A stretch of 64,000 bases of DNA from an uncultured Candidatus Saccharibacteria bacterium (lineage in GTDB: Bacteria; Patescibacteriota; Saccharimonadia; Saccharimonadales; JAGQNJ01): positions 67,643 to 131,642 of the forward strand of contig CAZPVO010000003.1 of NCBI GenBank assembly GCA_964590205.1, in the 5' to 3' direction. Every line of letters starts with the position of its first letter. The stretch's first letter is position 1. Position numbers and translations under genes: made by a program. Below, in pieces: positions 3,484 through 55,722 of the stretch. Below the pieces are notes generated by a model, which was not told the origin of the DNA, made no database searches, and saw only the letters and a list, made by a program, of their open reading frames with translations.

Positions 3484-3560
3484 TAAATGATTATCCCTCC
3501 TGAAATTCTTTCACTTAAGTGTACTACCCCTCTTATGCTTTTGGCAACTCCCCAGGAAAG

Positions 3561-7496: not shown

Positions 7497-7558
7497 AATT
7501 CAAATAGTTAGTCGTAAACTCCAAACATTAATCACAGGTCGCGTTCTATTGTAACCTG

Positions 7559-19931: not shown

Positions 19932-19991
19932 TTATTTACCCTCTACCTCTGTTAGTTTTGAATACATATGTTGTTCGTTATTGATCATTCC

Positions 19992-20558: not shown

Positions 20559-20774
20559 TTATTCTCCTGGTTGCACTTCAATAAATTCAACTTCACGCAG
20601 AGTACCACTAGCATCGACAACACCACCAGCGAGTGAAAGTCGTAGGCTGTTGGATCGCTCGGCAATACCTTCTCTTACATCTTCAGGCAGATCCTCATAT
20701 TTAGTGCATACTACGCGTCTGATCTGATCGTTAAGAAGCGCTCGTTCGTGTTCCGGCGTAAGTCCATCGGTCAT
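20559..20774 (-). CDS. small hypothetical protein (71 aa)
   Basis: Its stop abuts the frr start, so it is translationally coupled in the rpsB-tsf-frr operon. No recognisable motif. Confidence 0.4.
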   Translation of the reverse strand: MTDGLTPEHERALLNDQIRRVVCTKYEDLPEDVREGIAERSNSLRLSLAGGVVDASGTLREVEFIEVQPGE

Positions 20775-20817
20775 ATGTTTTCTCTCCTTAGAACTACTTT
20801 ATTGTAGCATAGAGCGC

Positions 20818-21291
20818 TTATAAAAATTCGCCTGGTTCGAGAGCTAAATCAAAGAAAGCCGTCGGACGTATTCTTGCACCATACCTTTTGTAAAATTTAT
20901 GAGCTCGCTCCCGAGAGTAATCAGATGTCCAATTAACTTGCTCAGCTTCCTGATCGCGACACCAATCGTTACCGATATCAAGTAACGTTTGCCCGATGCC
21001 TTGACCTTCCATTGACTTGCTGACCATGAAAAAGTCCAGGAAGCCTTTGATTTTCCATCCATGAATAATGATGTTCATTGTTGCCGAACCAACAAGTCGG
21101 CCTCCGAGTTGAGCAAGGAATACCTCGCGTTCAGGAGAATCAATAATTCTGCGCAGGAGTGCTTCGCGAGCTGGTTGATTATCATTATGCTCAAACGCTT
21201 CAGCCCGTAAATTTCCCATTTCGGCAGCAATTTCAGGGCTGTACTCTGTGAGTGTCCCGATTTCCACCCCAGTGGGTAAAACTAAAGCCAT
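20818..21291 (-). CDS. GNAT-family N-acetyltransferase
   Basis: Acetyl-CoA-binding Q/RxxGxG/A motif (MEGQGIGQTLL), 157 aa. It sits where pyrH is normally found. Confidence 0.8.
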   Translation of the reverse strand: MALVLPTGVEIGTLTEYSPEIAAEMGNLRAEAFEHNDNQPAREALLRRIIDSPEREVFLAQLGGRLVGSATMNIIIHGWKIKGFLDFFMVSKSMEGQGIGQTLLDIGNDWCRDQEAEQVNWTSDYSRERAHKFYKRYGARIRPTAFFDLALEPGEFL

Positions 21292-31131: not shown

Positions 31132-31176
31132 GCTTCCCTCTTCGCTTTTCTAAACATAAGCTTAGCACTTCCCTAC

Positions 31177-31194
31177 TTTCACGGCAACGTGAAA
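31177..31194. promoter_or_regulatory. split parS-like inverted repeat TTTCACG-gcaa-CGTGAAA in the parA promoter region
   Basis: Perfect 7-bp inverted repeat whose half-sites match the parS half-site (tGTTTCAC) but are separated by 4 extra bp. It lies 37-54 bp upstream of the parA start and downstream of a TATAAT-like -10. The 11-bp direct repeat ACTAGCATTAT occurs at 31208 and 31233. Confidence 0.45.
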
Positions 31195-31428
31195 TATACA
31201 TGTTCAACTAGCATTATATGGCTCCTAATCGTACTAGCATTATCCGGCTACCAAGTTTTCCCCTCTTGTATCCTTACTGCCCACATGTGAAGATTACTTT
31301 TTTGATTATTTTACGACACGAATAAAGTCCCTGTATTGGCCCATAGGTATGTCTGGATTTCTCGACTGAATAGATATAGTTGTTGTGAGAATAAGGCGAC
31401 CTTGGGTGCGAGGACTGATCGACGAGTA

Positions 31429-31452
31429 AAAGTTGCCAGTGGCAAGTTTTAC
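31429..31452 (-). terminator. weak hairpin (TTGCCAgTGGCAA flanked by A/T runs) downstream of the giant gene
   Basis: Palindrome at 31434..31446 about 100 nt past the giant-gene stop. The stem is short, so this is tentative. Confidence 0.25.
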
Positions 31453-31552
31453 AAGGAGTTCCGCAGCAAGCCTTATTACAACAGCAACTACCTCTAGGAA
31501 TGAGAGTATCCAGGAGCTTTGGTTACTTTGGCGGCCCAGAGTAACCTCTGTT

Positions 31553-34500
31553 CTATTGTTGAACTTGGTAGTTCATGATCACATCTGTTGAGGCTGGTGT
31601 TTCAAAGTAGATCGTGAAGTCTTTATCAGTGCTATCGACACGGTAGCGAGGCGCAAACGTATCCTTAGGCGTTAGTATGACAACTGGTTCACTACCCAGG
31701 TCGTATGGTTTCACGAAGGTAAACTTGAGCTGCGTCTGACCAGCTGGGATTGTCAGCGTTCCCCTAGTATCGGTATTGCCAAGCAAATGTCCCTGGATGG
31801 TAATGTTGCCGGCGAAGGTGGCGTTACCAGTAACTGTTAGTTGAGCTATTGTGGCCGCTCCAGTCACAGTCAGGTTGTGTACTGTCGCAGTACCTGAGAC
31901 ATTAAGGCTCGCGAAGTTGGTGTTGCCTTGGTTATTCTCAAGCGCACTCACACGTTGGCTCAAATCACTTATCTGTCCAGTAAGGTTACTAACACTGTTA
32001 TTTGAAGTTGTTTGCCCCTGCTGTAAGCCAGTTATTTGCAGGTCTTGCGTCTGAGCGGCACCAACCAGATAAGGGATGATTGCCTGGTAGTTGGCGACAT
32101 AGTAGCCGTTACTGTCTTGGGAAACAGCTTGAGGGAGTATTTGCATAAGCTCTTGGGCGATGAAGCCTTCTTGGTTCTTCTGTGTTGGATCATCATTCCA
32201 GGTAAAGTTCACACCTCGAAGCTGCTTAATAACATCGAGGCCATTGGCGATAGTTACTACATTACCCTTGAGCCGAGCGTCAGATGAACAGGCGAACTGA
32301 GTACCGGCGCCTGGGCTAATAGTACAAGTCTCGGCACCGGCGTTATTAAATTGCGCTACAGCACTACCACTGGTAGCTGCATTGGTAAAGGCAAAGACAT
32401 TTGAAGCATTAACACCCAAGGTAACATTGCCGTTATTAGCAGCATTTCGCCAGGCGATGTTGTTATTATTTTGAAGTCGCACTGCGCCTGCATCAGCACG
32501 ACTACTCCCTACCCCTAAGTATACCCCTGCGACCCACGCCCCGCCAGTTGAGGAAATGCCGCTAGCATTTGTCGTAATATTTCCGGCACTACTGATAGAA
32601 AAGTCAGTACCGACCGCAAAGGCATCATCGGTTTTAAGAGTATCAGCTGCACTGCGATATAGGTTGGTATCTCGTGATGAACCAAATGCCAGACCAGCAG
32701 CGGCACTTGTATTATCTGCGTCACTACCAACCCAAAGAGTTTGAGTCCGAGCCGTGCCAATTGCAATACCATAGTTTGTTCCGCTACCACTGTTAGACGC
32801 TCCAACCTTTATTCCATAATTAGTCGCGCCTGAGGTTAGGCCATCAATGTTAATGCCGTAGTTGTTGGTAACCACGGGTGCGCCATCAATAGTAGGGGCG
32901 TCGAGCTGAATACCATATATGTTAGACACTGTCAGACCCGAGCATAAGCCACTACATCCACCACTACCGCTGAGAGAAACTGTATTATGGAAGCCATACA
33001 TATTGGTTGTGGTGCTACCACTTATACCGAGGTTAGATACATTATTGCTAAATCCTGTATATGAAGCCATCGTGCCACTGCCCCCAATACTGCCTCCGAC
33101 ACCATAGCCATAGGCGTTGTCGGCAGTGGTAAGTGACATTGCAGCATAATAATTATAAGCGTTGCTTGTGCCCGCACCAGCATTGTCAGCTGAAACGTTC
33201 GAATAGACACCATACGTATTTGCGGTGCCACCAGTAGCACCTGTACGCGTAACATTTATCACTTGACCAAACGTTGTATCTGTACCGCTTGTCGTTACAC
33301 CAGTATTGTTTACAGTAGTCACTTGTCCTTGCAGCGATCCGGCAGTAGCACTTGCACTACTCTGAGTCACGTTCAACGGTGCTAAGCCAGACTTATTACC
33401 ATCACCTCCAAAAGATGAACTACCTTGCGCTGATAGACCTTGTCCAAACGATGCAGCACCCTGCACACTCAGATCACCGGCATCAGTAATGGTACCTTCG
33501 GTATAAAGTTGAGAGGCAGCAATACCACCGGCCGATAGCTGTTGGATATATGCTCCCCCCATATCGTAGATGCGCAAGTTACCATTTGCGTTCATATACG
33601 CATAGCGTCCAGCAACTTGTATGGTCTGAATAGCATTGCCGACGTTTGCGTTTGAAAGCACCGAAAAGGCATTGCTCGGTACGGTAACATCATAAACCGA
33701 GAAGCTTGTAGCAGCCGTGTTGCCGCCAAGATAGGCATAGTTACCTTGGACCCATATGGCCTGGTTTGTTGCACTACCGGTTGTGACGCTCTTAGTTAAG
33801 GTTGGCGCTGTCGGGTCACTAACATTTATAATTTCGAATTTACCACTGCTCTCACCAAGGTACGCATAGCTTCCTTTTACGAATATTGCATTCACGGCTG
33901 CGCCGATACCAGTGCCGGTTGTGCCATTGGTACCTGAAGAATTGATGAACCCGGTCGTAGTAACAGAGTAAGGATTAGAGATATCTGCGATGTATAGGTT
34001 AGTAGTTGTAGAGGTGTAATATATATATTTACCTTGGCCAAATATTTCACCATTACCGGATGCTACAGGTGTCCAGGTGCTCGTAACAGATGGAGATATT
34101 GGATTCGAAACATCCATTATTCTTACAACGCCACTACCCGTACTTATATAGGCATAGTGCCCTTGAACCCATATGCCGTTTGATGTTGCACCCCCATGAG
34201 CCGTTGTCGATACAATACTTGGCGACTTCGGATTACTAATATCAATGATCTGTAGGCTTGTAGAGGTGGCTACATAGGCATACTTACCTACCACTTGAAT
34301 CGATGTGGCAGTCCCAGTTAGCGCAGTAGAACCCAAATTAACCGGATTAGCTGGGTCAGAAATATCTTGTGGGACCAAAAAGGCACTCGTTATCGAATAG
34401 GCATAATTACCTTGAACCCATGTATCAATAGTACTCGCGAATGCAACCGAACCAATTTGCTGCGGGGCTGCCGCAAAGCTATTCTTAAATGTTGCGCCAG

Positions 34501-37500
34501 TACTGACATGCAGATCACCATCAATATTCACATTTCTATCGAAGTTTGCGCTACCTTGCACATCAAGTGACCCAACAATATGCGTGTTGCCGGCGGTAAG
34601 ACTGCCTCCAATACTGCCGGAAGGATCAGAACCCGAAGCATCCGACAAAGCTTGATTGCTCAGGCCAACCAGATCAAGCGAACCACCAACCAGTACACGG
34701 GCTGTGCTCGCGTAATAAATATTACTATATACAGTGCCCGATGATGCGTTAGCAGACGCACCGCCAAGACTATAGATATAGCCGTTGTCGGCTACACTTG
34801 CCTGACCAAGCAATGACTGAGGTAATGTATAGCTGGACGTCTGGAAAGTTCCCAGGGTTCCATCACCGTTAAGTTTGGCGTAGTAGATAGTGTTATTTGT
34901 GTTAGTTGAACCAGTGGTACTACCGCCAATAACATATACATACCCATTAACAAAGGCGCCCGAATGGTACTGACGGTTAGCAGGAAGTGTTGGTGTGCTT
35001 AGGGTTTGGACGTTACTGTTAGCACCAGTTAATGGATCAAGTGTCGTAGTAATAATGGTATTGTTTGCCCCACCACCAATAATGTAGGCCGTGTTATTGG
35101 CTACAACTACTGTGGCATTAGCGCGTCCGCCAACTGTCGTACCAGTATTCCACGCCGTAGCACTTGAACCATTGCCACCAAGACTACCGTCAGAGTTAAC
35201 CTTTGCGTAAAATAGGGCACCGGCACCTCCCGATGCAGAATAAATATAGCCATTAGCCGTAAAGACAACATGGCCAGACTTGGCAGTCAAACCACTAGTG
35301 TTGCCGCTTTGCCAGGCACCTGTCGAACCATCAGAGTTAATTTTTGCATAATAAACAGTCGTTTGGTTCGATCCGTTATTTGCAGCATGACCACTGACGA
35401 CATACATAAAACCGTTAACCACAACTGGATTGCCGAACTCTCCTCGCGCTGCTGGCAGTGACTGGGAAGCAGTTGTCCATGAGCCAGTTGAGCCATCAGC
35501 ATTAATTTTTGCATAGTACACAGCGGTTGTTGCGGCTGAGCCATTAGCAGTTGCAGTGAATCCGCCTACTGAATAGACATAGCCATTGTAGACAACTGAG
35601 CCATTACCATAAACGCTGGCTGGCAAGCTGTTGTTGTTCTTTTCCCATGGGCCAGTTTCACCGGTATTCTGGTTATTGAGTGTAATATGGTTCTGGAAAG
35701 CACCTACTTGTAGGTTTTGAGCGGGAGCTGTGTACGTAAGCCCTGTCGCTCCTGAGACAATCGTTACCCCATCAACAAAAATGTTTCGAGCAGTAGCGTC
35801 GCTTTGCTTAATATATGCACCTGCTACCGTCGTACCATTAGCGCCAGCAACAAGAGTAGAACATGTGAACAGCGTCCAGGTTGTGTTAAGGGTTTGGCCG
35901 GTAAGACAGTTAATGTCAGATCCATTGCTAGTGAGGCCTATCTGTGCCGTTGTCATGCTGCCGCTGTCGACACGAGCATAGAAGCTTACGCTGTAGGTGC
36001 CACCGGCTGGAAAGGCCAGGTTAAAGGTGGCTCCATCGTTGGCTGCTGCGGTGGTGGCAATCTTAAGAGATCGACTCCCGAAGTTGGATAAGCTGTCGTC
36101 ATCGGTAATGGTAGCGCTACCCTTGGCGGTAACAAGTGAAGTATTTTGTTCAAAGTTCGGGTTTCCAAACAGGTTCAGGCCACTCGTCAGCGTATTTATC
36201 TTCAAGATGTCTGCTCCAGAAGCATTATCTACCCTGAAAGCTGAAGTTGAATTTGCAGCGTTTTGGAACAAGGCCGAACCGTTATTGCCGCTGATGGTCA
36301 CTACCGTACTCTGGGCGTTCTGCGTACTACCAGTAGAGCCAGCCGCTGCAATCTTAATATTCACATCGCCACCATTACCGGTACCCGTGCCAACCCCGCC
36401 ATTTAGATTCAGTGCACCGCCAGTTGTATTAGAAAGACCACTGGCTGCATTGCCTCCTTGTACGCTAAGCGCTGCAGCTGTAACGCCTGCACTCGAACTG
36501 CCAGTTGCATTTAGCGTAAAGGCAGCTGGTGTTGCTGATGTAACACCGTTACCAAAGTAACCCGATGTTGCAGTACTGGAAGCAGCTTGTCCTAGCTGGA
36601 CAACTAACTGGTTAGCAGCTGTCGAGGCTGCTGATGCACCGAGTACTACGGTGTCGCTAAAGGCAGACGAAGCACTACCCCCCAAAATAACGTTTCTATT
36701 TACCGTACCACTGGCTGCCGCACTGGACCCGAGGATGACGCAGGTTGCACAGTTGCCACCACTAGCACTTGTGCCAATAATGACGTTACCCGCCGAAGAA
36801 CTGCCGGTTGCGCTAGTACCAATTACGACTGCGTTGCCACTTGGTGAAGTGGCACTATTTCCAATTACTACAGTGTTGTTACCGGCTGCTGTGGCGCCTG
36901 AACCAAAGCGTTCACTGCTACTACCTGCACCAGGACAGCTTAGGCTTCCATTAGTTCCACTAATCGTACAAGCTGTTGCCAAACTGTTTACCGAGGTGCC
37001 TGATGTACCTGCCGCAGAGTATTGAAAGATAATGTTACCACCCGCAACATTACCTGTACTCTGGCCACCGGCCAATATTAAGTCACCTCCTGCTGTGTTG
37101 CTTGTACCAGTTGTTGAGCTACCGGCTTGCAACTGAATAGCAGTACCTGCTCTACCGGCAGTGTTACTACCTTCGCCTGTAAGCGTAAACGAAGATGGAT
37201 TAAGTGCACCAGCTGTTGCCAGACCAAAGTACGCAGTATTACTGGTATCAAAAACCAGCCGGGTTATATTATTTGTTTTAATTGCCAGCGTATTGTTATC
37301 GAGCGTACCGAGTACTCCCGGCGTACTTGCCCCAAGCGTATTGCCACCTTGCGCCCAGTAAGTACCACTTGCCTGGTAGCCTGAGCAGACCGAACCAGTC
37401 GTACAAATTGTGCCGCTTTCATCTGGTAGCGTAAATGTTCTGCTTGCCGTAAAAGTATTGGCACCGAGTATCGATCCAATAAAGCCATTGCCAGCTGTAC

Positions 37501-40500
37501 TATCGTGAAAAGCCAAAATCCCTTTAATTGGTGTCGTATCGTTGCCAAGTGCTACACCAGGTACTATCCCGCTCGTAACAATAGTGAGAAGAGAAGCTCC
37601 ATCAGACCGTTTAACAGCAAACGCTGAAGCAGAGTCGACACTGTTTTGGAAAGTGGTCGCACCGCCAACTGCAATGGTTGCTTGGGTTACATTGTTAGTT
37701 TCAAACTTGAAGTTGTTGCTGTCGTTAGTACCAAGAATTACATCTGAACCGAAGCTATTACCGTTATTAAGAATGTCGCCTGTCCCACCAATTCCGGCAC
37801 AGTTACCACTGGTCAAACAAACCGTACCCGAAGCATTTGGCAAAGAAATAGCATACGTGCTTGAGCCTGGGTTAGATGCCGATAGACTAATCGAACCTGA
37901 GCCGCCTGAGTTATAGAATGTTAAGCTGCCGGTTGCACCTGAGGCTCGTCCAAAATAGAAGTTTCCACTTGCCGTAACACCAGAGACTGCATTGCCGCTA
38001 CTGTCTTGGAATTGCAACAAATCAGCCGTCTGGCTTGATTTAGCTTTTATAAGACCAGTGATGCTGCCAGTGGCAGAGCTTTGAACTGCAAAGTTTGCAT
38101 TGCTCTGAACAGTTGTCGAGTTATTAATGTAATTACCAGAGCCGCTCGACGATGCAAAACCACAATTGGTTGAGTTTTGTATACAAATTGTGCCGCTTTC
38201 GTCAGGCAGATTAATTGTTCGTGCACCGGTTGCAGCTACCACGCTTAGCGTTGTCGTATTAGAGTTTGAGCTATTATTGAAAACAAGCGTACCAGAGCTA
38301 GAAGATGCTTGGCCAAGTAAAACTGAGCCATTAGAGGTATTGGCAGTCAGAATGTTATCACCGAGCGACGTGAGGATCCTGAAGCCGGCCGATGAGTTAG
38401 TGCTATTCTGGAAGGTTGTAGCTCCCCCATTTGCGATGGTGACTTGTGTATTATTCCCTGTAATAAATTGTAGACTGTTTGCATCTGTTGTTCCGAGCTT
38501 GGCAGTTGCACTAAACGCATTTCCATTTTGAGTAAAGTAATTGCCGCTTGCTTGGTAGCCACTACAAACTGAACCAGTTGTACAAACAGTTCCATTTTCG
38601 GCAGGTAGTGTAATCGTATATGCAGTCGGCCCTGGATTTGCAGCATTGAGGGTTATTGAGCCAGCACCCGCGGCATTGTATAACAACAAACTACCCGATG
38701 TAGAACTTGCAGTACCTAATACTGCAGTGCCCGTTGGCACTGTCAACGTACTACCAACTATAAAGTTGCCATCTGTTTTTAGCGTGGCTGCTGCTGAACG
38801 ATATAAGTTTGTATCACGAGAAAGTCCGAATCCTATGCCAGCCGCAGCCGTCGTATTATCAGCATCACTCGAGAGCCAAAGGGTCTGAGTATCAGCAGTA
38901 CCGACTGCTATACCGTAGTCGACCGTTCCAGCCGTTTGCGGCTGTACATTAATACCAAAGTTAGTGCCAATGGTGCCGCCGCCACTATTAACTGCAGATA
39001 ATACGAGTTGACCAGCGGCATTGGTGATCGTACCTGATGAGGTATTACTAACAAGTGTGCCAAGACCTATTGCGCTTGTTACAGTACCACTAGCATTGTT
39101 ATCACTCAGAGCAAGCATTCCAAATTCAGAAGTAACAGAGCCAGCGCCGTTATTTCTTGCCCAACCTGACGTACCAATAACTGTACTGACCGCCCCCGTC
39201 GTGCTCACATTAGTTGTTCCAGCAGTTGAGGTATATACCCCTGAGTAGTTGATTCCTGATCCGGTCAAACCTAAACTACCATCCAAAGCTGTCGAAAAAA
39301 CCGTCGAATCAGAAGGAGGGCTTAGCGTAATCCAATCTTGGATACCTGTTACCGCACCACTAGTATTTGAATAGCTTTCCTTGGTTTGCACCAACACATT
39401 AGGACTAATAGAGGCATTGCCACCGACTGCAAGCTGACTGCCAACCGTAAGGTCATTATTAACATTTACATCACCCGATGAAGTCACAGTCAGTCTTGTG
39501 ATGTTATGAGTCTCGAAATTTAAATCATAGTTATCGTTTGTACCGATAGTAATAGCTGAGCCAAAAGCGTTACCACCATTGTTGATGTCACCGCTACCGC
39601 CACTACCATTACAGTTATTGGCGGTTGTGCAAATATCATACGTACCAGAACCTGCTGCCGTCGCAAATTTGTATGTTGTTGTTCCACCTGCCCCATCAGC
39701 TAACTTAAAGTAAATGTTTCCGTCTGTTCCAGTGAGACCACCTATTCCACTGCCCGCCGTACCAGCCTGGAACGTAATATTGCCCCCAGCACCATTGGTT
39801 GAGCCATTTGGTGCGTCACCGCCATTCCCGGCCTGCAAGCTGATAGACGAACCCGCACCACCGATTTGCCCGGTTCCTCCAACTGTATTGCCACCTTTAG
39901 CCCCCAGTACATTAAGAACTGGATCGGCATCTGTCCCGTCAGATCCCGAGTCATTTGGTGATGAACTATTAACTGTAAGCGTTGCTGAAGGAGTCCCCGC
40001 ACCAATAATTACCCTTTTATCAGTTGTATCGACAGTCAGAACATTAGACCCAGCAGTATTTTTAACCTGAAAGGCTGTACTACTATTGGTTGTTGGCGCC
40101 AATGTGAAGCGGTCAGTTATGATATCTCGAACATACTCGGTGCCGTAATAGGCTGTTGGCGAACCGATATTAGAACCAGTTACGGTGTCAGAAGCCGAAC
40201 CAAGGTTAGCAAAGCGTAGTCTTTGGTTGGATGCATCGTAGTAAGCCAACTGGGCGTAACCATCAGGGCCTATTGCAGCAGAAACATACTGACCAACATT
40301 CGCCGAACTGTCGACTGTTGAAATAGTTGGGTTGGCACAGGTTTTGTCATCACAAGAAGCAAATTTTAGAGTGTTAGGAGTAGTATCATAATATGCGATT
40401 TGTGGCACACCTTTGGCATTCAGCACAATACTTGTGGCTTGAGCATCGGAAGTGTTATCAACCGTTTGGGTCGTCTTGGATGAGCAAGCCGCATTAAGAC

Positions 40501-42430
40501 AGTTAATGTAGGTTAGGCGGCCTACGCCAGAACTCTGATAAGCAATGTGTGCCAAGTTGGCGTTATCAAGAACAATTGTGTTCCAGTCGCCAGACCCGCT
40601 CGCCGCATCAACCGTAGTTGTATTGCTTGTGGTACAGTTAGCATTCGTACATTGTACATACTGAAGCCCTCCTGGTTGCAAATGATAGGTTAGTCTTGCT
40701 GTATTATCAGAAGCTAAAGCTATCCCTGGTGCACCTGTATTATTACCACCGCTATTATTAATAACGGTAGAAACCGACGTGGAACAATCAGTTGCTGTAC
40801 ATCGAACAAACGTAAATGAAGTGTTTGCGCCGTTAAATAGAAACATCCGTGCCATTCCATCCGTGCCAACGGCAATTCTTGCCGAACGTTGAGTTAGATT
40901 ATTTGCCCCGCTCATAACTACTACTGGTGTAGTAGTAGTGCTACAGTCGGAATTACAACGTAAAAACTTAAACTGATCATTCAGCGAATCGTAGTAAACA
41001 ATGTGGATGTTATTGCTACTATCAAGTGCTGCTGAGGCATGCGAACCAATACTGCCTGTCGATTGAAGTGTCCGTTGTGTAATACTTGAACAAAGTGTGT
41101 CGTTACACTTGGTAAAGCCAAGATCTGCCGCTGTCGGTTTGAAGCTTATAATCCTGGCCAAGCCACTACTGTCAAGCAATATTGTGTCGTGCTGACCGTC
41201 ACGAACTGCAGATAGCGTAGTATTGTAAAAAGTGGTGGTAAGGTTCCCTGCTGTCAGAGGCACTAGCGAAGCTGTATTAACCGTACCCGTAGTTGTATTT
41301 ACGGTTAGTAAATTTACTCCTGCTGCATTTTGAACAGCAAATGCCTGGTTTGAGTTGGCTGCATTCTTAAAAGTTACTGCGCCACCAACTGCAAAAGTAG
41401 CCGCTGTTTGTCCATTGGTTCGAATCTGCAACGGATTACTGTCATTTGTTCCTAGAACTGCCGTTGCACCGTATTTGTTACCGCCTTGTAGAAAAGCCGT
41501 TGTCGAAATTTGAATGTTGACAGTATTACCACTTTGATTGGTGGTAAGAGTAATACCTGTTCCTTGTAGCAATTTAATAACTTGGGAGTTATCACCTGTA
41601 CCAAATGTCAGAGATACATCGCCTACTTGGCCGTTAATAGAACTAACGCTATCTTCTTGTGTTGTACTTGTAGCAACTTGGCTTTGGATCGGTACTGAGT
41701 TGCTTGATGCACAATTGTCTGAACTTAAACATATTTCGCCCGAGCTATTTGGCAAAGTATAGACTTGATCAGATGTTAACGCACTGGCGTCAAACTGTCC
41801 AAATACGGTGCCATTGGCTGTACCAATAAACAGCGAGCCCCGTGCAACAACGTCACCATTCACAATTAATTTATTTTTGCCGCCTTTAGACTGTAGAACT
41901 GATAAAACGTTCCCTGTATCTTCACCTAGAGTCAAACTTTGTTCATTCACCGAGCTAGATGGTGATTTAAGCTGACCGATGTTGCGGCGCGATATAAACC
42001 CTGTGACACCGACTAACGCAATTACAATCAGCATCGCCACACCGGTTATGATGTAAACAGCTTTATTGCGGCCAAGTCTTCGTGGGAATAACGGTGTTTT
42101 GGGTTCTGCAGCTGGAGTCTGAGCCGGCTGCGTAGCAGTAGATGCTCCCGAATTAGGGTCACCTAACGGAGGTGATGCTACCGGGTTGGATGTGACAACA
42201 GATTCACTTGGGGCTGATTCTAAAGAGTTAGCATCCGGAACAATTGGCGGTTCATAGCTGTTTGTTGCTGTTTGAGATGGAGGTGGTGTTACTGGTTGAG
42301 AAACTGATTGTGTACTAACGGATGCAGCAGCAGTTGGAGTTGAGGCACCTTGATACGAGGCCCCTTCCCCCTGCTGGGTAGGAGTAAAAACTGTGTTCGC
42401 AACTGGGGTATTTTTATCTTCGTTTTGCAT
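31553..42430 (-). CDS. giant (3625 aa) N-terminally membrane-anchored surface fibre/adhesin with Kelch and LVIVD propellers, a CBM4_9-like domain, tail-fibre-like repeats and a C-terminal Peptidase_S74 intramolecular chaperone domain
   Basis: Single uninterrupted ORF. aa 1-123 are S/T/P/A-rich, aa 124-146 form a TM helix, and the rest is G/S/T/N/A-rich with multiple internal repeat families (domain map in findings). All plus-strand ORFs inside are antisense artefacts. Confidence 0.9.
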   Translation of the reverse strand: MQNEDKNTPVANTVFTPTQQGEGASYQGASTPTAAASVSTQSVSQPVTPPPSQTATNSYEPPIVPDANSLESAPSESVVTSNPVASPPLGDPNSGASTATQPAQTPAAEPKTPLFPRRLGRNKAVYIITGVAMLIVIALVGVTGFISRRNIGQLKSPSSSVNEQSLTLGEDTGNVLSVLQSKGGKNKLIVNGDVVARGSLFIGTANGTVFGQFDASALTSDQVYTLPNSSGEICLSSDNCASSNSVPIQSQVATSTTQEDSVSSINGQVGDVSLTFGTGDNSQVIKLLQGTGITLTTNQSGNTVNIQISTTAFLQGGNKYGATAVLGTNDSNPLQIRTNGQTAATFAVGGAVTFKNAANSNQAFAVQNAAGVNLLTVNTTTGTVNTASLVPLTAGNLTTTFYNTTLSAVRDGQHDTILLDSSGLARIISFKPTAADLGFTKCNDTLCSSITQRTLQSTGSIGSHASAALDSSNNIHIVYYDSLNDQFKFLRCNSDCSTTTTPVVVMSGANNLTQRSARIAVGTDGMARMFLFNGANTSFTFVRCTATDCSTSVSTVINNSGGNNTGAPGIALASDNTARLTYHLQPGGLQYVQCTNANCTTSNTTTVDAASGSGDWNTIVLDNANLAHIAYQSSGVGRLTYINCLNAACSSKTTQTVDNTSDAQATSIVLNAKGVPQIAYYDTTPNTLKFASCDDKTCANPTISTVDSSANVGQYVSAAIGPDGYAQLAYYDASNQRLRFANLGSASDTVTGSNIGSPTAYYGTEYVRDIITDRFTLAPTTNSSTAFQVKNTAGSNVLTVDTTDKRVIIGAGTPSATLTVNSSSPNDSGSDGTDADPVLNVLGAKGGNTVGGTGQIGGAGSSISLQAGNGGDAPNGSTNGAGGNITFQAGTAGSGIGGLTGTDGNIYFKLADGAGGTTTYKFATAAGSGTYDICTTANNCNGSGGSGDINNGGNAFGSAITIGTNDNYDLNFETHNITRLTVTSSGDVNVNNDLTVGSQLAVGGNASISPNVLVQTKESYSNTSGAVTGIQDWITLSPPSDSTVFSTALDGSLGLTGSGINYSGVYTSTAGTTNVSTTGAVSTVIGTSGWARNNGAGSVTSEFGMLALSDNNASGTVTSAIGLGTLVSNTSSGTITNAAGQLVLSAVNSGGGTIGTNFGINVQPQTAGTVDYGIAVGTADTQTLWLSSDADNTTAAAGIGFGLSRDTNLYRSAAATLKTDGNFIVGSTLTVPTGTAVLGTASSTSGSLLLYNAAGAGSITLNAANPGPTAYTITLPAENGTVCTTGSVCSGYQASGNYFTQNGNAFSATAKLGTTDANSLQFITGNNTQVTIANGGATTFQNSTNSSAGFRILTSLGDNILTANTSNGSVLLGQASSSSGTLVFNNSSNSNTTTLSVVAATGARTINLPDESGTICIQNSTNCGFASSSGSGNYINNSTTVQSNANFAVQSSATGSITGLIKAKSSQTADLLQFQDSSGNAVSGVTASGNFYFGRASGATGSLTFYNSGGSGSISLSASNPGSSTYAISLPNASGTVCLTSGNCAGIGGTGDILNNGNSFGSDVILGTNDSNNFKFETNNVTQATIAVGGATTFQNSVDSASAFAVKRSDGASLLTIVTSGIVPGVALGNDTTPIKGILAFHDSTAGNGFIGSILGANTFTASRTFTLPDESGTICTTGSVCSGYQASGTYWAQGGNTLGASTPGVLGTLDNNTLAIKTNNITRLVFDTSNTAYFGLATAGALNPSSFTLTGEGSNTAGRAGTAIQLQAGSSTTGTSNTAGGDLILAGGQSTGNVAGGNIIFQYSAAGTSGTSVNSLATACTISGTNGSLSCPGAGSSSERFGSGATAAGNNTVVIGNSATSPSGNAVVIGTSATGSSSAGNVIIGTSASGGNCATCVILGSSAAASGTVNRNVILGGSASSAFSDTVVLGASAASTAANQLVVQLGQAASSTATSGYFGNGVTSATPAAFTLNATGSSSAGVTAAALSVQGGNAASGLSNTTGGALNLNGGVGTGTGNGGDVNIKIAAAGSTGSTQNAQSTVVTISGNNGSALFQNAANSTSAFRVDNASGADILKINTLTSGLNLFGNPNFEQNTSLVTAKGSATITDDDSLSNFGSRSLKIATTAAANDGATFNLAFPAGGTYSVSFYARVDSGSMTTAQIGLTSNGSDINCLTGQTLNTTWTLFTCSTLVAGANGTTVAGAYIKQSDATARNIFVDGVTIVSGATGLTYTAPAQNLQVGAFQNHITLNNQNTGETGPWEKNNNSLPASVYGNGSVVYNGYVYSVGGFTATANGSAATTAVYYAKINADGSTGSWTTASQSLPAARGEFGNPVVVNGFMYVVSGHAANNGSNQTTVYYAKINSDGSTGAWQSGNTSGLTAKSGHVVFTANGYIYSASGGAGALFYAKVNSDGSLGGNGSSATAWNTGTTVGGRANATVVVANNTAYIIGGGANNTIITTTLDPLTGANSNVQTLSTPTLPANRQYHSGAFVNGYVYVIGGSTTGSTNTNNTIYYAKLNGDGTLGTFQTSSYTLPQSLLGQASVADNGYIYSLGGASANASSGTVYSNIYYASTARVLVGGSLDLVGLSNQALSDASGSDPSGSIGGSLTAGNTHIVGSLDVQGSANFDRNVNIDGDLHVSTGATFKNSFAAAPQQIGSVAFASTIDTWVQGNYAYSITSAFLVPQDISDPANPVNLGSTALTGTATSIQVVGKYAYVATSTSLQIIDISNPKSPSIVSTTAHGGATSNGIWVQGHYAYISTGSGVVRIMDVSNPISPSVTSTWTPVASGNGEIFGQGKYIYYTSTTTNLYIADISNPYSVTTTGFINSSGTNGTTGTGIGAAVNAIFVKGSYAYLGESSGKFEIINVSDPTAPTLTKSVTTGSATNQAIWVQGNYAYLGGNTAATSFSVYDVTVPSNAFSVLSNANVGNAIQTIQVAGRYAYMNANGNLRIYDMGGAYIQQLSAGGIAASQLYTEGTITDAGDLSVQGAASFGQGLSAQGSSSFGGDGNKSGLAPLNVTQSSASATAGSLQGQVTTVNNTGVTTSGTDTTFGQVINVTRTGATGGTANTYGVYSNVSADNAGAGTSNAYNYYAAMSLTTADNAYGYGVGGSIGGSGTMASYTGFSNNVSNLGISGSTTTNMYGFHNTVSLSGSGGCSGLCSGLTVSNIYGIQLDAPTIDGAPVVTNNYGINIDGLTSGATNYGIKVGASNSGSGTNYGIAIGTARTQTLWVGSDADNTSAAAGLAFGSSRDTNLYRSAADTLKTDDAFAVGTDFSISSAGNITTNASGISSTGGAWVAGVYLGVGSSRADAGAVRLQNNNNIAWRNAANNGNVTLGVNASNVFAFTNAATSGSAVAQFNNAGAETCTISPGAGTQFACSSDARLKGNVVTIANGLDVIKQLRGVNFTWNDDPTQKNQEGFIAQELMQILPQAVSQDSNGYYVANYQAIIPYLVGAAQTQDLQITGLQQGQTTSNNSVSNLTGQISDLSQRVSALENNQGNTNFASLNVSGTATVHNLTVTGAATIAQLTVTGNATFAGNITIQGHLLGNTDTRGTLTIPAGQTQLKFTFVKPYDLGSEPVVILTPKDTFAPRYRVDSTDKDFTIYFETPASTDVIMNYQVQQ

Positions 42431-42506
42431 TTGTGTTTGAACCTAAGCTTTGAGCTTATGGTTACCCCATATAAATTGTACGGCATCAGGAGTTAAAACC
42501 AAAGGA

Positions 42507-42531
42507 TTTTGCACACAAAATGTGTGCAAAA
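42507..42531 (-). terminator. intrinsic terminator / perfect palindrome TTTTGCACACA-aaa-TGTGTGCAAAA between the 278-aa gene and the giant gene
   Basis: 11-bp perfect stem immediately after the stop of ORF 42536..43372, followed on the minus strand by the U-rich tract TCCTTTGGTTTT. Confidence 0.55.
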
Positions 42532-42535
42532 CTTC

Positions 42536-43372
42536 CTAAATCCACAAAATGATATAAATCGAACCTAGCCCAAAGAGTAAAACAATAAACGCCAGCCACG
42601 ATACTTGAAACAACTGCTTGAACAATGCTGTTCGAGCCAATGGATTACGTCCAACAGAGATAATCGAGCTATGAATAGCTCCATAAATAATCGATCCTTC
42701 CACAATAAGCAGCAAGAAAAAGATCACTAAAGCTACGATTACTTGAGCTTGGGTAACGGTTTTTCCGGTTATGGACTGCCCGAAAAGTACCAAATAAGGT
42801 TTTTGCTCGGCAGCGTCAAGACTTCGGTCGTGCGGATCGACATTGATCTTAACTTTGTTGATTAGAACTGTTCGTTCACTACCTTCTTTTGTGCTGACCT
42901 TCTGCGTAATCGCTTTATCTTTGTTAAAATCTTCTAATGCTGCCCCTACTACTTGGGTATCACTGTCAGCTGCCTTCATGCCTATTCCAGTCAGGGGTGA
43001 AACCACAATATAGTCACCCTGTTTGATGTCGCCATTCAGATCTGATACATACACGTCAGCATCACCCGAGGTCGTAACGTAAACTTGAGCATTAGAATTA
43101 CTCAAAGTTATCAAACTGGAATCAATCGTTGTGACAATTCCAACAACTTTACCCTTGTTACCATTGTTTGCTCGCTCAACAAGTTCGTTGCCATCTGAAC
43201 TATTTTTTGTTTGTGAAGCAATCATATTTATCTTCAGACTCGTATCTGTAGTGCTGTAGCCTTTTGAAATGCTAACAGCGAGCGCAGATGCAGCCGGTAG
43301 TAAAACCAATAAGCAAGCTACGGCTGCAGACAGTCGTAGATACCATTTAACAGATGACAAATTCTTGGCCAT
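42536..43372 (-). CDS. hypothetical secreted/membrane protein (signal peptide, beta-rich ectodomain, 2 C-terminal TM helices)
   Basis: 278 aa. N-terminal signal-like LRLSAAVACLLVLLPAASALA, and C-terminal VIVALVIFFLLLIVEGSIIYGAI / WLAFIVLLFGLGSIYIILWI. Lies directly upstream of the giant gene, co-directional. Confidence 0.5.
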   Translation of the reverse strand: MAKNLSSVKWYLRLSAAVACLLVLLPAASALAVSISKGYSTTDTSLKINMIASQTKNSSDGNELVERANNGNKGKVVGIVTTIDSSLITLSNSNAQVYVTTSGDADVYVSDLNGDIKQGDYIVVSPLTGIGMKAADSDTQVVGAALEDFNKDKAITQKVSTKEGSERTVLINKVKINVDPHDRSLDAAEQKPYLVLFGQSITGKTVTQAQVIVALVIFFLLLIVEGSIIYGAIHSSIISVGRNPLARTALFKQLFQVSWLAFIVLLFGLGSIYIILWI

Positions 43373-43451
43373 TCTTATTCGCCCTCAAGCGTTAGCATAA
43401 TGACTATTCTAGCGCATAGCGCGTCAGTTTACTATTGATTGAGAAGAAAGC

Positions 43452-43757
43452 TTAGGCGATTTTAGAAATTTTGATCGTAGTGTGACGCTGTCGATGACCG
43501 TGTACTTTTTTTACGCGTTTTTTAGCTTTGTAACGGATTGCGGTCACTTTATCGTCTTTTACTTCTTGTTCCAAGATATCAGCTGTAACTTTACCAGCGA
43601 GCTCAGGAGTACCAATCTCAACTTTATCACCATCAATGGTTAACAGAGGTTTAAAATCGACTTTTTTATCGGCAGTCTTCAGGAGCTCAATCTCAAGAGT
43701 CTCACCTTCAGATACGAGATATTGTTTGCCACCAGTAGTGATTACAGCTTTTTTCAT
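43452..43757 (-). CDS. rplU: 50S ribosomal protein L21
   Basis: MKKAVITTGGKQYLVSEGETLEIE is canonical L21. No rpmA (L27) follows it here. Confidence 0.9.
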   Translation of the reverse strand: MKKAVITTGGKQYLVSEGETLEIELLKTADKKVDFKPLLTIDGDKVEIGTPELAGKVTADILEQEVKDDKVTAIRYKAKKRVKKVHGHRQRHTTIKISKIA

Positions 43758-43794
43758 AATACCAATAGAGATTAACAGATAAGCATCTGTTTGT

Positions 43795-46704
43795 CTAGGC
43801 TTTTGCTAAAGCGATGGCTAGTTCAGCTCCCTCAACTTTTACCGAAGTTTCAAACTGTTTAGGCGGAGTTTTGACTAAACTTTTGGCCAAAACTTCTTGT
43901 TTTATGGTATCTTCGTGCTCTTCTATGGCCTTTGCCAACTCTTTGTCATCTGTTAGTAACGACACCGTTATGCGGTCATCGACATTCAAACCGGCTTGCT
44001 TGCGTGCACTCTGAATATTTCGGATAACTTCGCGCATTAACCCTTCTCGTTTTAGAACTGGAGTTAATCTTGTATCCAGTACAACAGATGGGTTAGGACC
44101 ACCTCCGACTTCACTAGCCGTTTTACTTGTAACTTTCTTAACATTTAGCTCTTCCTTGGCAATTTCAGCAAACTGATCATAGTATTCCTTCGCATCTACG
44201 GTATCAAATACGTTTACTAAAACTGCCTCAGTTAAAGGTTGGCGAACTTTGAGTTTAGCTTCGGCTCGCTTGGCGAGTCCATCAGTAATTGCGTCACGTA
44301 ACTTTTGCATTTCATCTATTAAAAGTTCGTTGATGTGGCCGACCTCTGGCCAGTCCAGCAAATGAACTGATTCCTCACCAGTGAGGTTACGGTATAGTTC
44401 TTCGCTCAAGAACGGTGTAAATGGCGCAAAAATTATTGCAACTTGAGTCAAGACATAGTGCAAAGTCTTGTATGCATCGTTCTTATCGGTGTCATTATCG
44501 CTCTTCCAGAAGCGTTTACGACTTCGGCGAACATACCAGTTACTGGCATCATCAACAAATTCTAGCATCGGTTTCATGGCATTTGGAATATCATAGCGCT
44601 GCATATGCCCGTCTACTTCTTTAGTCAACTGATGTACCCTGGAAACTACCCACTGATCAAGAGGGTTTTTAAGTTCTCCCGATGGATCTTCAAGCTTACC
44701 GTCCCATTCCCAACCATCAACATCGGCGTACATCGTAAAGAAGTCGTACATGTTCCAGATCATAGCCAATTTACGCTGCACATCCGCCACATCTTTGTCC
44801 TGCAGCGAGAAATCTTCACCGTTCAACAGAGTTGAACTGAGTAGTAAAAATCGCAAAGCATCAGCTGAATACATATCCATCAGCTCATTCGGATCGGTGT
44901 AGTTACCAAATTGCTTACTCATTTTGCGGCCATCATTACCTGCTAACGTCCCCGTTACGATGACATTGCTAAAAGCGTTTTTATCAAACAGACCTACGCC
45001 AACAGCGTGTAAGTAATAAAACCAGGCTCGCACCTGACCAACATACTCGGCGATAAAGTCAGCCGGGTAGCTTTGTTCAAACTTCTCAACATTTTCAAAT
45101 GGATAATGAAATTGTGCAAACGGCATGCTTCCAGATTCAAACCAGCAGTCCAAAACTTTGTCTATTCGAGTGTATTTGACGCCATCTATTGTAAATGTAA
45201 CATCATCTATCCACGGACGATGGTAGTCATCTAACTCAATACCGCTTAACTCCTTGAGTTCAGCGTAGCTGCCAACAACTTTGATGTGTTCTTTACCACT
45301 TTTATCTTTCCCTTTCCAAACAGGCATGGCTGTTGCCCAAAAACGGTCACGGCTTAAGTTCCAATCCGGTGCACTCTCAACTGTCTTAGCAAACCGCCCT
45401 TGCTTAACGTGCTCTGGAAACCAATGGATCGGGCTATTATCCTCAAGCATCTTCTCTTTCTGCCCCTGAATATCCAAGAACCAACTCGGGTGAGCCCGGT
45501 ATATCAACTTTGAATGACAGCGGTGACAGTGCGGATAGCTGTGGGTATAGTAGTAAATTCGGAGGGCTTTTCCCTGGCTCAAGAAGTTTTTAGCAATCTC
45601 TTTGTCAACATCCCAAACCTGTTTACCCTTCCAGTCACTCTCTGTTAGAAAGCCATTATCATCAATAACTGCTACCACTGGAAATTTCTTTTCTTGTGAC
45701 AGCTGATAATCTTCTTCACCATAAGCCGGCGCTTGAGAAACTATACCTGTGCCTTCCTCCATGCTGACAAACCAGGCATCGTAAATCTTATGGGCACCCT
45801 CACCCCAATCTTTGTAGTAAGGTTCGTAAGATCTGCCGACTAGCTCTTTACCCTTTAGTTCCCTCACTGTCTTGTACTCCAGGGGCTGATGTTTTTCATC
45901 TTGAAGGACTTCTGTGACTAAATCCTTTGCCAAGATGTACTTGTCTTTACCGACTTCAACTTCTGCGTAAGTAGCATCCTTATCGACAGCCAGACCAGTA
46001 TTAGCCAGTAGCGTCCATGGAACAGTTGTCCATACTAACAGATAAGTATCGCTGTCTTTCAATTTAAATTTGGCATATAGTGAAGGGTCGGTAACATCCT
46101 GGTATGAGTTATCCATGGCCACCTCAGCCTTGCTGATGGGTGTAGCATCGCGAATACAATACATAAGCACCTTTTCGCCCTCATAGATTTTGCCACGCTC
46201 ATACAGCTTCTTAAAAGCCCACCAGACGGATTCCATGTAATCTTTGTCCATGGTTTTGTAGGCACCCTTAAAATCAACCCAGCGGCCAATCCGATCAATA
46301 GTATCTTCCCAAAGAGATCCAGTCTGCACCATATTATCGCGACATGTGGTGATGTACTCTTCCAGGCTAACCTTTGTGCCGATGTCACGCTTATCAACAA
46401 TTCCGAGCTTTTTCTCTGTAAATACTTCAGCTGGAAGGCCGTGACAATCCCAACCCCAGACACGTTCAACACGCTTGCCTTTCATGGTCCAATAGCGTGG
46501 TACAGCATCTTTAACGATGGAGCTCAATAATGTTCCATGATGCGGCACCCCTGTTATAAACGGCGGGCCATCATAAAAAACATAACTATTAGATTGGGGT
46601 CGATTTTCGACAGACTTCTCAAAGGTCTTGTTGTCTTTCCAGTGAGTGACAAGATCTTTTTCGTATTCGATTGCTTTGCGACGACTTCCCTGTTTGAACT
46701 TCAC
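43795..46704 (-). CDS. ileS: isoleucyl-tRNA synthetase (eukaryote-like type 2)
   Basis: FYDGPPFITGVPHHGT (HIGH), WDCHGLP and KMSKQ. GTG start at 46704..46702, preceded by SD AAGAGG. 969 aa. Confidence 0.95.
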   Translation of the reverse strand: MKFKQGSRRKAIEYEKDLVTHWKDNKTFEKSVENRPQSNSYVFYDGPPFITGVPHHGTLLSSIVKDAVPRYWTMKGKRVERVWGWDCHGLPAEVFTEKKLGIVDKRDIGTKVSLEEYITTCRDNMVQTGSLWEDTIDRIGRWVDFKGAYKTMDKDYMESVWWAFKKLYERGKIYEGEKVLMYCIRDATPISKAEVAMDNSYQDVTDPSLYAKFKLKDSDTYLLVWTTVPWTLLANTGLAVDKDATYAEVEVGKDKYILAKDLVTEVLQDEKHQPLEYKTVRELKGKELVGRSYEPYYKDWGEGAHKIYDAWFVSMEEGTGIVSQAPAYGEEDYQLSQEKKFPVVAVIDDNGFLTESDWKGKQVWDVDKEIAKNFLSQGKALRIYYYTHSYPHCHRCHSKLIYRAHPSWFLDIQGQKEKMLEDNSPIHWFPEHVKQGRFAKTVESAPDWNLSRDRFWATAMPVWKGKDKSGKEHIKVVGSYAELKELSGIELDDYHRPWIDDVTFTIDGVKYTRIDKVLDCWFESGSMPFAQFHYPFENVEKFEQSYPADFIAEYVGQVRAWFYYLHAVGVGLFDKNAFSNVIVTGTLAGNDGRKMSKQFGNYTDPNELMDMYSADALRFLLLSSTLLNGEDFSLQDKDVADVQRKLAMIWNMYDFFTMYADVDGWEWDGKLEDPSGELKNPLDQWVVSRVHQLTKEVDGHMQRYDIPNAMKPMLEFVDDASNWYVRRSRKRFWKSDNDTDKNDAYKTLHYVLTQVAIIFAPFTPFLSEELYRNLTGEESVHLLDWPEVGHINELLIDEMQKLRDAITDGLAKRAEAKLKVRQPLTEAVLVNVFDTVDAKEYYDQFAEIAKEELNVKKVTSKTASEVGGGPNPSVVLDTRLTPVLKREGLMREVIRNIQSARKQAGLNVDDRITVSLLTDDKELAKAIEEHEDTIKQEVLAKSLVKTPPKQFETSVKVEGAELAIALAKA

Positions 46705-55506: not shown

Positions 55507-55722
55507 TTAGCGAGATGAGAGTTTTACTTTTTTTATCTTTTGTATTTTACGATTTTTGCGCACAATGGCACGCTCACGACGCTCACGTTTACTGAGCGGT
55601 TTTTCAAAGTACTGGGATTGCTTTGATACAGCCATTACGCCTGACTGTTGTACTTTCCGGGTAAACCGACGAAGCATATTTTCGAGCGGTTCTTTGGAAT
55701 CTTTACGAGTAACTTGAATCAT
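55507..55722 (-). CDS. rpsU: 30S ribosomal protein S21
   Basis: 71 aa, basic and S21-like (LRRFTRKVQQSGVMAVSKQSQYFEKPLSKRERRERA). Confidence 0.8.
   Translation of the reverse strand: MIQVTRKDSKEPLENMLRRFTRKVQQSGVMAVSKQSQYFEKPLSKRERRERAIVRKNRKIQKIKKVKLSSR

Follow-up and report, generated by a model that had tools for sequence, protein, structure and literature searches.

The 64,000-nucleotide stretch of DNA analyzed here (contig CAZPVO010000003.1 of assembly GCA_964590205.1, positions 67,643 to 131,642; hereafter the window, whose own numbering is used throughout) comes from a Saccharimonadales (TM7) bacterium and carries, on its minus strand, two neighboring genes that are the subject of this report. 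The upstream gene (42536 to 43372) encodes a membrane protein of 278 amino acids (aa), designated U278. It is followed by a giant gene (31553 to 42430), an uninterrupted 3625-aa open reading frame (ORF) with an ATG start that is by far the largest of the window. Upstream of the pair lie the genes for isoleucyl-tRNA synthetase (ileS) and ribosomal protein L21 (rplU), and downstream those for ParA and ParB. All features of the pair described below are on the same minus strand.

Given the 47% G+C content of the window, a chance origin of an open frame of 3625 codons is impossible. The identical 3625-aa product is recorded in NCBI and Logan, and a separate Logan assembly of run SRR9179560, possibly built from reads shared with the window assembly, shows 100% identity over positions 32536 to 44556, covering most of the giant's repeats. 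Neither the second assembly nor the recorded product revealed frameshifts or assembly faults, and their agreement indicates that the giant is not an assembly or frameshift artifact. The intact ORF reported in a first-pass annotation, made from the sequence of the window alone, is thereby upheld, and the possibility of frameshifts that it raised did not materialize.

The giant starts with a low-complexity tail rich in P, S, T, A, and Q (aa 1 to 120; 42071 to 42430), probably cytoplasmic, followed by a transmembrane (TM) helix or signal anchor with basic residues on both sides (aa 124 to 146; 41993 to 42061). Its Kyte-Doolittle profile contains one TM-grade segment, at aa 121 to 149, which is the sole peak of ≥1.6 in the 3625 aa. 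Composition and hydropathy are thus in agreement with the low-complexity start of about 120 aa and the single TM helix (aa 124 to 146) proposed in the first-pass annotation. The latter had also described the protein as having almost no charged residues, which is right in direction and overstated in degree: G, S, T, N, and A make up 58% of the giant and D, E, K, and R 8.2%, the charged share being lowest (2.8%) at aa 1751 to 2000. The giant is charge-poor rather than charge-free. Its 34 cysteines are all located C-terminal to the TM helix and form near couples (C-x2-15-C, mostly C-x3-6-C), which fits an oxidizing, extracytoplasmic location of the long part of the protein.

Self-BLAST of tiles of the giant identified six repeat families, where at least five had been predicted. 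One is a fiber module of ~125 aa ending in LPxxSGT[IV]C(x3-6)C, present in five full motif copies plus further copies without the motif; self-similarity and Cys spacing place an array of these modules, each with the closing LPxxSGT[IV]C...C, at aa 885 to 1727 (37250 to 39778). Up to 29 copies of the module occur in other giants, these reaching 5474 aa. Matches of the module profile to designed "Bagel" propellers were sums of ~3.5-bit repeats and were treated as spurious. Another family, also delimited by self-similarity, consists of about six or seven ~50-aa repeats, six of them with a C-x3/4-C pair (aa 400 to 750; 40181 to 41233), which follow the pattern ...YYDxxxxxLxFxxC-x3/4-C... with Cys pairs at ~50-aa intervals. 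These repeats are missing from the closest relatives and matched no Pfam family and, by sequence, no solved structure; their resemblance to propeller blades makes a beta-propeller-like module likely. Repeat pairs were found at aa 1156 to 1231 and 3203 to 3279 (62 to 68% identity) and at aa 1729 to 1842 and 1953 to 2065, and Kelch blades and LVIVD blades represent two more of the six families.

A Pfam scan of the giant, conducted in segments with the curated gathering cutoffs, located three domains in the distal half: a CBM_4_9 carbohydrate-binding module (aa ~2086 to 2189; 35864 to 36175; 32.7 bits, cutoff 25.9), additional to those listed in the first-pass annotation; a Kelch-type beta-propeller (aa ~2257 to 2601; 34628 to 35662; Kelch_6, 33.5 bits, cutoff 25.3; Kelch_1, 21.5 bits, cutoff 20.1); and an LVIVD beta-propeller (aa ~2669 to 2957; 33560 to 34426; 124 bits over six stretches, cutoff 20.2), in the region of which Beta_propel and PorZ_N_b_propeller also exceeded their cutoffs. 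Kelch proteins were the only matches of the giant among PDB sequences, and the internal repeats agree with the Kelch region. NCBIfam holds no family for either the giant or its 278-aa neighbor.

Toward the C terminus, the giant contains a Peptidase_S74 intramolecular chaperone core (Pfam PF13884; aa 3383 to 3436; 32123 to 32284), matched at 52.9 to 57.3 bits against a cutoff of 22 and over profile positions 1 to 57 of 58. The catalytic motif S3383-D-A-R-L-K3388 conforms to S-D-x-R-x-K, with Ser, Asp, and Lys at least 90% conserved across 10 aligned C termini; we take S3383 and K3388 to be the Ser-x4-Lys dyad of the family, as known from endosialidase and MyRF. In PHROGs, the S74 region matched two phage families, one of them annotated "long tail fiber protein distal subunit," and at least 473 relatives of the core were found in IMG/VR viral contigs. 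The C-terminal chaperone domain of tail spike/endosialidase type previously proposed for the giant is borne out by the Pfam match and the conserved dyad, and S74, Kelch, and LVIVD, the three domains put forward for verification at that stage, all score above their Pfam cutoffs.

The ~190 residues after the S74 core (31556 to 32122) are modeled as a long helix (model residues 119 to 172), assigned to a coiled coil at aa ~3437 to 3510, and a terminal beta-sandwich (aa 3511 to 3625, ending in ...NYQVQQ). This region is kept at 32 to 81% identity in the S74-bearing relatives. The AlphaFold2 (AF2) model of aa 3330 to 3625 has a mean predicted local distance difference test (pLDDT) score of 61 and is confident for the last ~70 residues alone (82 to 91). 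In Foldseek, the beta-sandwich retrieved tailspike tips, pyocin-fiber tips, and H-type lectins at E ~0.02 (all E > 0.01), a weak hint from the model that the giant's end may resemble fiber tips or lectins. Overall, we are highly confident that the giant is a real, N-terminally anchored, extracellular S74 fiber protein.

Relatives of the giant were collected by an exhaustive representative search with aa 100 to 420, which yielded 164 cluster representatives of up to 5474 aa, N-anchored matches among them. In a collection of 5.8 billion proteins, the index of which handles such giants poorly, aa 110 to 420 had no match, self included, and the C terminus as a query retrieved six short proteins only. 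Sixteen aligned N termini share a disordered tail of 70 to 120 aa, a basic-flanked TM helix, and a family-defining juxtamembrane module (aa 147 to 260 of the window's giant; 41651 to 41992) with the motifs xVxEQxVxL, LxVNGDxxxxGxL, and YTLPNxSGTxCLDSNNC (in looser form, YTLPNxSGxxCLxSxNC). An N-terminal TM helix, at aa ~70 to 150, is present in every family member examined. The tail is otherwise unalignable except for a (D/E)xLEx(P/H)-type motif located 45 to 60 residues N-terminal to the TM helix in most of the 16 giants (S69-LESAP74 in the window; 42209 to 42226), the conservation of which suggests a cytoplasmic binding partner.

The C termini, on the other hand, are of at least three types. 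The S74 end is found in the window and in related loci L004, L005, L006, L009, L025, and L027 and is missing from the giants of L001, L011, L014, L015, and L016. Lengths among the 16 loci include 925, 1367, 1411, 1638, 1745, 1860, 1883, 2069, 2094, 2241, 2706, 2769, 2856, and 3625 aa. Even in L004, the closest relative, with 64% identity to the window in U278 and 83% in L21, there is no counterpart to aa 400 to 800 and ~2100 to 3200, i.e., the Cys repeats and the CBM-Kelch-LVIVD cassette. The L005 homologue has weak YadA_head-like repeats (E 1.7e-4, below the cutoff). The alignments point to a pattern in which the giants combine a constant anchor with a binding region that is shuffled and specific to the lineage.

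U278 has 209 homologues, the window's copy being without a Pfam name. Hydropathy shows a hydrophobic N-terminal segment and two C-terminal TM helices, as anticipated by the first-pass annotation, which had described a signal-peptide/2-TM protein. The N-terminal segment is a signal peptide or helix (aa 1 to 32; 43277 to 43372; model helix, 6 to 27) with ASALA before and VS after the candidate cleavage point; small residues at −3/−1 followed by a conserved ISQGYxTxD in the family make cleavage probable. The AF2 model, based on a 74-sequence alignment, has a mean pLDDT of 90.1. It predicts, in order, the N-terminal helix, an extracytoplasmic beta domain of beta-tulip type (aa 33 to 182; 42827 to 43276; aa 35 to 182 in the model), two short helices, and a C-terminal TM helical hairpin (aa 208 to 277; 42542 to 42751) made of helices 208 to 242 and 244 to 277. 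An invariant G241-R-N-P244 (42641 to 42652) marks the hairpin's cytoplasmic turn and is the sole invariant cytoplasmic feature of U278. E225, in helix 1 of the hairpin, is at least 90% conserved in a 22-sequence alignment (A1) and missing in the members linked to atp operons (see below).

Structurally, the U278 ectodomain matched the autochaperone of the phi29 gp12 tailspike and trimeric phage decoration proteins. Among predicted viral structures, the top match was a "preneck appendage protein" (E 2.9e-10), together with many long tail-fiber-like proteins. At the sequence level, 18 of the 74 homologues matched PF23982 (XM1_gp53_minor_capsid; best E 9.5e-5) and one matched Phage_cement; the window's own U278 matched neither PF23982 nor PF22758, and its search of PDB sequences gave nothing meaningful. 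A metagenome scan with the U278 profile found five loci; a viral scan found none, its search pattern being in the TM hairpin and hence uninformative on the ectodomain. Domain D4 of gp12 consists of tandem beta-tulips and is an autochaperone needed for trimerization of the tailspike and later removed, and beta-tulips in general function as trimers (bioRxiv 10.1101/216911; PMC3357383). The model would therefore have U278 provide in trans, from a membrane tether, the type of domain that certain phage fibers contain in cis for their assembly. The gp12-autochaperone/decoration fold of the ectodomain lends support to the earlier suggestion that U278 is an assembly or anchoring partner of the giant.

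U278 relatives come from Candidatus Saccharibacteria/Saccharimonadales metagenome-assembled genomes (MAGs), including chromosome-scale contigs of 0.77 to 0.84 Mb, consistent with the small genome assumed at first pass. The recurrent gene order in these relatives is ftsA-ftsZ-nrdR-nrd-ileS-rplU-U278-giant-parA-parB-lepB-LCP. Among all loci that were retrieved and examined, in 16 of 16 distinct informative ones, with U278 identities down to ~36%, a same-strand gene for a large protein with a single N-terminal TM helix adjoins U278; four further loci end too near U278 for the pairing to be judged. The order itself is not fixed. The giant is upstream of U278 in L005, as is the giant's C terminus in L002/L003, where parA directly follows U278, and rplU is interposed between the two genes in L013. 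Since the pairing outlasts these rearrangements, it argues more strongly for a functional link than synteny alone would. U278 is also paired with the giants that lack S74 (L001, L011, and L014 to L016). The combination of conservation and hypervariability that the first-pass annotation had proposed looking for in related genomes is thus what the family displays, with a pair kept in all informative loci and giants of 925 to 3625 aa with a variable middle.

Directly after the U278 stop codon is a perfect palindrome with a 12-pair stem, TTTTGCACAC-ATTTT-GTGTGCAAAA (42506 to 42532, minus strand), and the U278-giant intergenic region has a fold z score of −2.9. The palindrome comprises two inverted copies of TGTGTGCAAAA, near-identical to GTGTTCAAAA, a motif that follows TATAAA in the U278-giant spacers of L001, L014, L015, L016, and L025, where it is positioned 84 to 118 nt before the giant start codon. 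Elsewhere in the window, the motif shows no enrichment (8 matches versus 5.9 expected). As the hairpin is lacking in 12 related loci, its interpretation as a conserved terminator was rejected; it may serve as a terminator or, just as well, as an operator or promoter-proximal element. The palindromic, terminator-like hairpin of the first-pass annotation is thus real as a palindrome, with "terminator" being one reading only of an unconserved element that overlaps a conserved promoter-region motif. One-mismatch copies of the motif also occur at 19956 to 19966 and 55554 to 55564, just upstream of minus-strand genes.

The architecture of the giant, its domains, the conserved dyad, and the conserved pairing with U278 are established observations, and the U278 fold is a high-confidence prediction. 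On this basis the first-pass interpretation is supported, and we lean, on balance, toward an interpretation of the whole package as a domesticated phage-type fiber adhesin with a membrane-tethered, trans-acting assembly/anchoring factor. The two genes would form a surface-fiber module of an epibiotic Saccharimonadales bacterium, built from phage structural parts. The giant would be inserted in type II orientation via its N-terminal signal-anchor helix, with the ~120-residue tail inside and ~3480 residues outside. The outer part would be a long, charge-poor repeat fiber, probably homotrimeric, with a shaft of ~125-aa disulfide-clasped modules and, in the distal half, a lineage-specific receptor-binding cassette of CBM4/9 and Kelch and LVIVD propellers. 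Folding and registration of the three chains would be nucleated from the C terminus by the S74 chaperone, which, by analogy with endosialidase, T5 pb1, and MyRF, would then probably cut itself at Ser3383 through the Ser-Lys dyad, freeing a 243-aa fragment. U278, after removal of its signal peptide, would be a membrane-tethered beta-tulip held by the two-helix hairpin and most likely form a trimeric platform on the membrane, serving the fiber's anchored end as a chaperone or a socket; such a platform may be of special weight for family members devoid of S74. The CBM/Kelch/LVIVD cassette would bind glycans on a host or partner cell, and specificity would be adapted as species exchange their middle cassettes. 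For the giant, we infer a trimeric beta-helical form and surface localization, and also that S74 cleaves itself and that the protein takes part in attachment to the host.

Several known systems bear comparison with this module. Like phage S74 fibers (K1F endosialidase and the T5 pb1 L-shaped fiber), the giant has the S74 Ser-x4-Lys dyad after a long charge-poor repeat region, a helical segment after S74, and distally placed receptor-binding modules, and it matches tail-fiber PHROGs. It differs from them in its bacterial core-gene neighborhood, its TM anchor and cytoplasmic tail in place of a virion-attachment domain, a length three to four times greater, the ~190 residues with a conserved beta-sandwich after S74, and the separate conserved membrane protein alongside. 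For U278, the closest systems are phi29 gp12 D4 and the trimeric beta-tulip decoration/cement proteins (lambda gpD, P74-26 gp87, XM1 gp53, and the base of phi29 gp8.5). In contrast to U278, which is a separate, exported, hairpin-tethered product, D4 is a C-terminal fiber domain that is cleaved off, and the decoration proteins are bound to the capsid instead of tethered to the cell membrane. MyRF is likewise a membrane protein in which an S74 chaperone drives trimerization and Ser-Lys self-cleavage; its S74 precedes the TM helix, however, and the cut frees a cytoplasmic DNA-binding trimer, whereas in the giant the TM helix is N-terminal and S74 occupies the distal extracellular tip. Trimeric autotransporter adhesins of the YadA family also are long, repeat-built, trimeric surface fibers (the trimer being presumptive for the giant) with a proposed function in adhesion, but the giant has an N-terminal TM anchor and, by our model, S74-nucleated folding, without a C-terminal beta-barrel or an outer membrane. 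Membership of that family was rejected, as no giant segment matched a YadA-type anchor in Pfam at E ≤ 1.

The closest precedent is a proposal for the CPR epibiont Vampirococcus lugosii, according to which its giant membrane proteins of 1392 to 4163 aa make up a fibrous surface that binds the host (PMC8080830). These proteins resemble the window's giant in being very large, membrane-localized products of an ultra-small epibiont and differ in their WD40, PKD, integrin, and fibronectin domains, with no S74, partner gene, or fixed locus described. Giant surface proteins in epibionts are unsurprising in themselves. S74-bearing "tail fiber domain" proteins, in turn, are common in bacterial genomes. 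What appears to be new here is that the protein is anchored by an N-terminal TM helix and has a conserved motif in its cytoplasmic part, that its gene keeps a set position on the chromosome, that an obligate membrane partner supplies a beta-tulip in trans, and that the cassettes turn over. A search of the full-text literature found no description of the locus, of Saccharibacteria S74 fibers, or of the U278 family, and the locus is not treated in a survey of giant genes.

A number of observations weigh against this interpretation. The AF2 pLDDT is <50 ahead of the S74 core and 56 to 72 over the core itself, and with the model of this region being poor, the S74 fold is backed by sequence only. 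Three distant full-length U278 homologues (33 to 40% identity) head atp operons rather than standing beside a fiber gene. The giant-linked loci all lie in the same chromosomal neighborhood, and the adjacency of U278 and the giant could in part reflect inherited synteny instead of selection, although the three rearranged loci argue otherwise. With a terminator-like hairpin between them, the two genes may lack cotranscription in this genome, and the physical contact between their products is inferred. Finally, at the syntenic site of the cultivated model Southlakia epibionticum (ileS-NTP transferase-rplU-parA-parB, SEML1_0180 to SEML1_0186), neither gene is present (PMC10633639, Table S1), and S74, LVIVD, and tail-fiber annotations are absent from the tables examined for that organism. 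The module is consequently lineage-restricted; epibiotic life as such does not require it, and it cannot be tested directly in the current genetic model. The central role envisaged in the first-pass annotation does not hold, at least as a universal or "central" Saccharibacteria function.

Some of these data would also accommodate a real, anchored fiber with a structural or protective function, i.e., a fibrous coat keeping cells apart, protecting them from grazing or (as a decoy or a shield) from phages, or binding polysaccharides of the environment. The extremely S/T/G/N-rich, mucin-like composition of the giant would suit such a coat, CBM4/9 is generic for glycans, and the fibrous coat of Vampirococcus is found not only on the side facing the host but also where sister cells adjoin (PMC8080830). 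S. epibionticum, moreover, attaches to its hosts without the module, type IV pili and other adhesins being essential there. We nonetheless find this function unlikely, as the turnover of propellers and CBM against a conserved anchor and C terminus is the pattern of a receptor-binding protein rather than of bulk coat, and a single-copy 3625-aa gene with elaborate S74 maturation would be a costly way to coat a cell. An S-layer protein was also considered and rejected, by reasoning from the giant's unfitting size and architecture and its lack of lattice or SLH-type domains.

The atp-linked homologues raise the question of whether U278 is instead a general membrane protein, possibly ATP synthase-associated or c-subunit-like, that stands beside the giant through a shared, insertion-tolerant rplU-parA slot. 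These loci (L023, 9734 to 15577; L024, 10001 to 15900; L026, 4199 to 10528) are tightly packed operons that start with the U278-like gene, followed by a b-like gene (its product having a coiled coil and a single TM helix) and then by the genes for delta (OSCP), alpha, gamma, beta, and epsilon. The canonical Saccharibacteria operon, as in S. epibionticum, is AtpZ-a-c-b-delta-alpha-gamma-x-beta-epsilon. No gene for subunit a or c was present in the fetched flanks of the atp-linked loci, and c-subunit sequences, used solely as probes, detected no canonical c gene in these loci or in the window. The atp-linked operon could be for an F1/stalk complex docked on a noncanonical membrane partner, and the position of U278 homologues at its head implies that the function of the U278 family is not intrinsically fiber-specific. 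The invariant R-N-P turn of the U278 hairpin also resembles the R-Q/N-P loop of c subunits (hhalign sets GRNP on ARQP with P = 0.0017 and a probability of 15.7%). In addition, the rplU-parA slot takes other surface genes, such as those for the beta-helix and LamG proteins of L027, and the terminator-like hairpin splits U278 from the giant.

Set against this, the adjacency has survived three independent rearrangements of gene order, and a phage fiber-chaperone/decoration fold makes sense beside a phage-type fiber. ATP-synt_C (PF00137) had no match in 74 U278 members at E ≤ 10, helix 2 has no mid-membrane Asp or Glu, and in structure the hairpin resembles c subunits no more closely than it does designed hairpins. 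That U278 is a general membrane protein adjoining the giant through the shared slot hence seems to us improbable. A bolder conjecture, and in our estimation a long shot, would unite the two settings. U278 would be a c-subunit-derived hairpin fused to a phage beta-tulip ectodomain and forming an oligomeric membrane socket, with which one Saccharimonadales lineage would have replaced Fo subunits a and c (keeping b, delta, alpha, gamma, beta, and epsilon) so that the F1 motor is coupled to an extracellular domain. In the window's lineage, the socket would hold and assemble the phage-derived giant fiber, the (D/E)xLExP tail contacting GRNP, and the fiber would belong to a machine in the membrane instead of being a passive adhesin. 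For an F1 motor coupled to an extracellular domain, an analogue exists in the F1-like ATPases of Mycoplasma surface machines.

A prophage or tailocin remnant with the giant as its virion tail fiber is what the S74 domain, the tail-fiber PHROGs, the phage-like U278 fold, and the abundance of the S74 core in viral contigs might at first bring to mind. The flanking ileS, rplU, parA, and parB are nevertheless in conserved order in at least 16 loci, and no phage gene (capsid, portal, terminase, tail, or integrase) was found at the giant locus. The window has no G+C break, tRNA and Rfam scans of it were empty, and every family member has an N-terminal TM anchor rather than a virion-attachment domain. 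A prophage origin, scarcely credible on these grounds, was rejected on genomic context; the giant gene belongs to the chromosome of an epibiont lineage with a small genome. As for an assembly artifact or decaying pseudogene, which a long, repetitive, low-complexity gene from a MAG could suggest, 3625 unbroken sense codons, an identical second assembly and recorded product, intact domains above their cutoffs, and the same architecture in many MAGs, including the 0.77- to 0.84-Mb contigs, make it practically inconceivable.

If the domesticated phage-type fiber adhesin with its membrane-tethered partner is the correct interpretation, it would be a clear case of bacteria domesticating a phage fiber and a phage fiber-assembly domain, the latter redeployed in trans on the membrane. 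A considerable part of bacterial diversity belongs to Saccharibacteria and other Patescibacteria, which live attached to other bacterial cells. What is known of the way they select and grip a host is mostly confined to type IV pili and some predicted adhesins (PMC10633639, PMC11665869). The locus is a useful candidate in this respect, with its fixed address between rplU and parA, conserved anchor and partner, and a swappable CBM/propeller middle like that of phage receptor-binding proteins. Should the giant prove to be a host-recognition fiber, sequence data might allow the host range of uncultured Saccharimonadales to be predicted, and the binding cassette could serve as bait for finding hosts. 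The link of the U278 family to an ATP synthase operon devoid of a and c merits a study of its own.

The surroundings of the pair show some further features. In L027, a gene for an 850-aa pectate-lyase-like beta-helix protein is located between ileS and rplU (6540 to 9092), and one for a LamG/sialidase-like protein of >626 aa directly follows the giant (18995 to 20873); genes for surface proteins appear to have a hotspot in the rplU-parA region. In the window, 420 bp (31132 to 31552) without an ORF of ≥80 aa separate the giant stop codon from parA, and no Rfam family or tRNA gene was detected in this interval. An 11-pair hairpin (31521 to 31546) directly follows the stop codon. The corresponding gap measures 240 to 1250 bp in related loci and about 65 bp in L022, and in L001/L012 the interval contains an extra 197-aa ORF.

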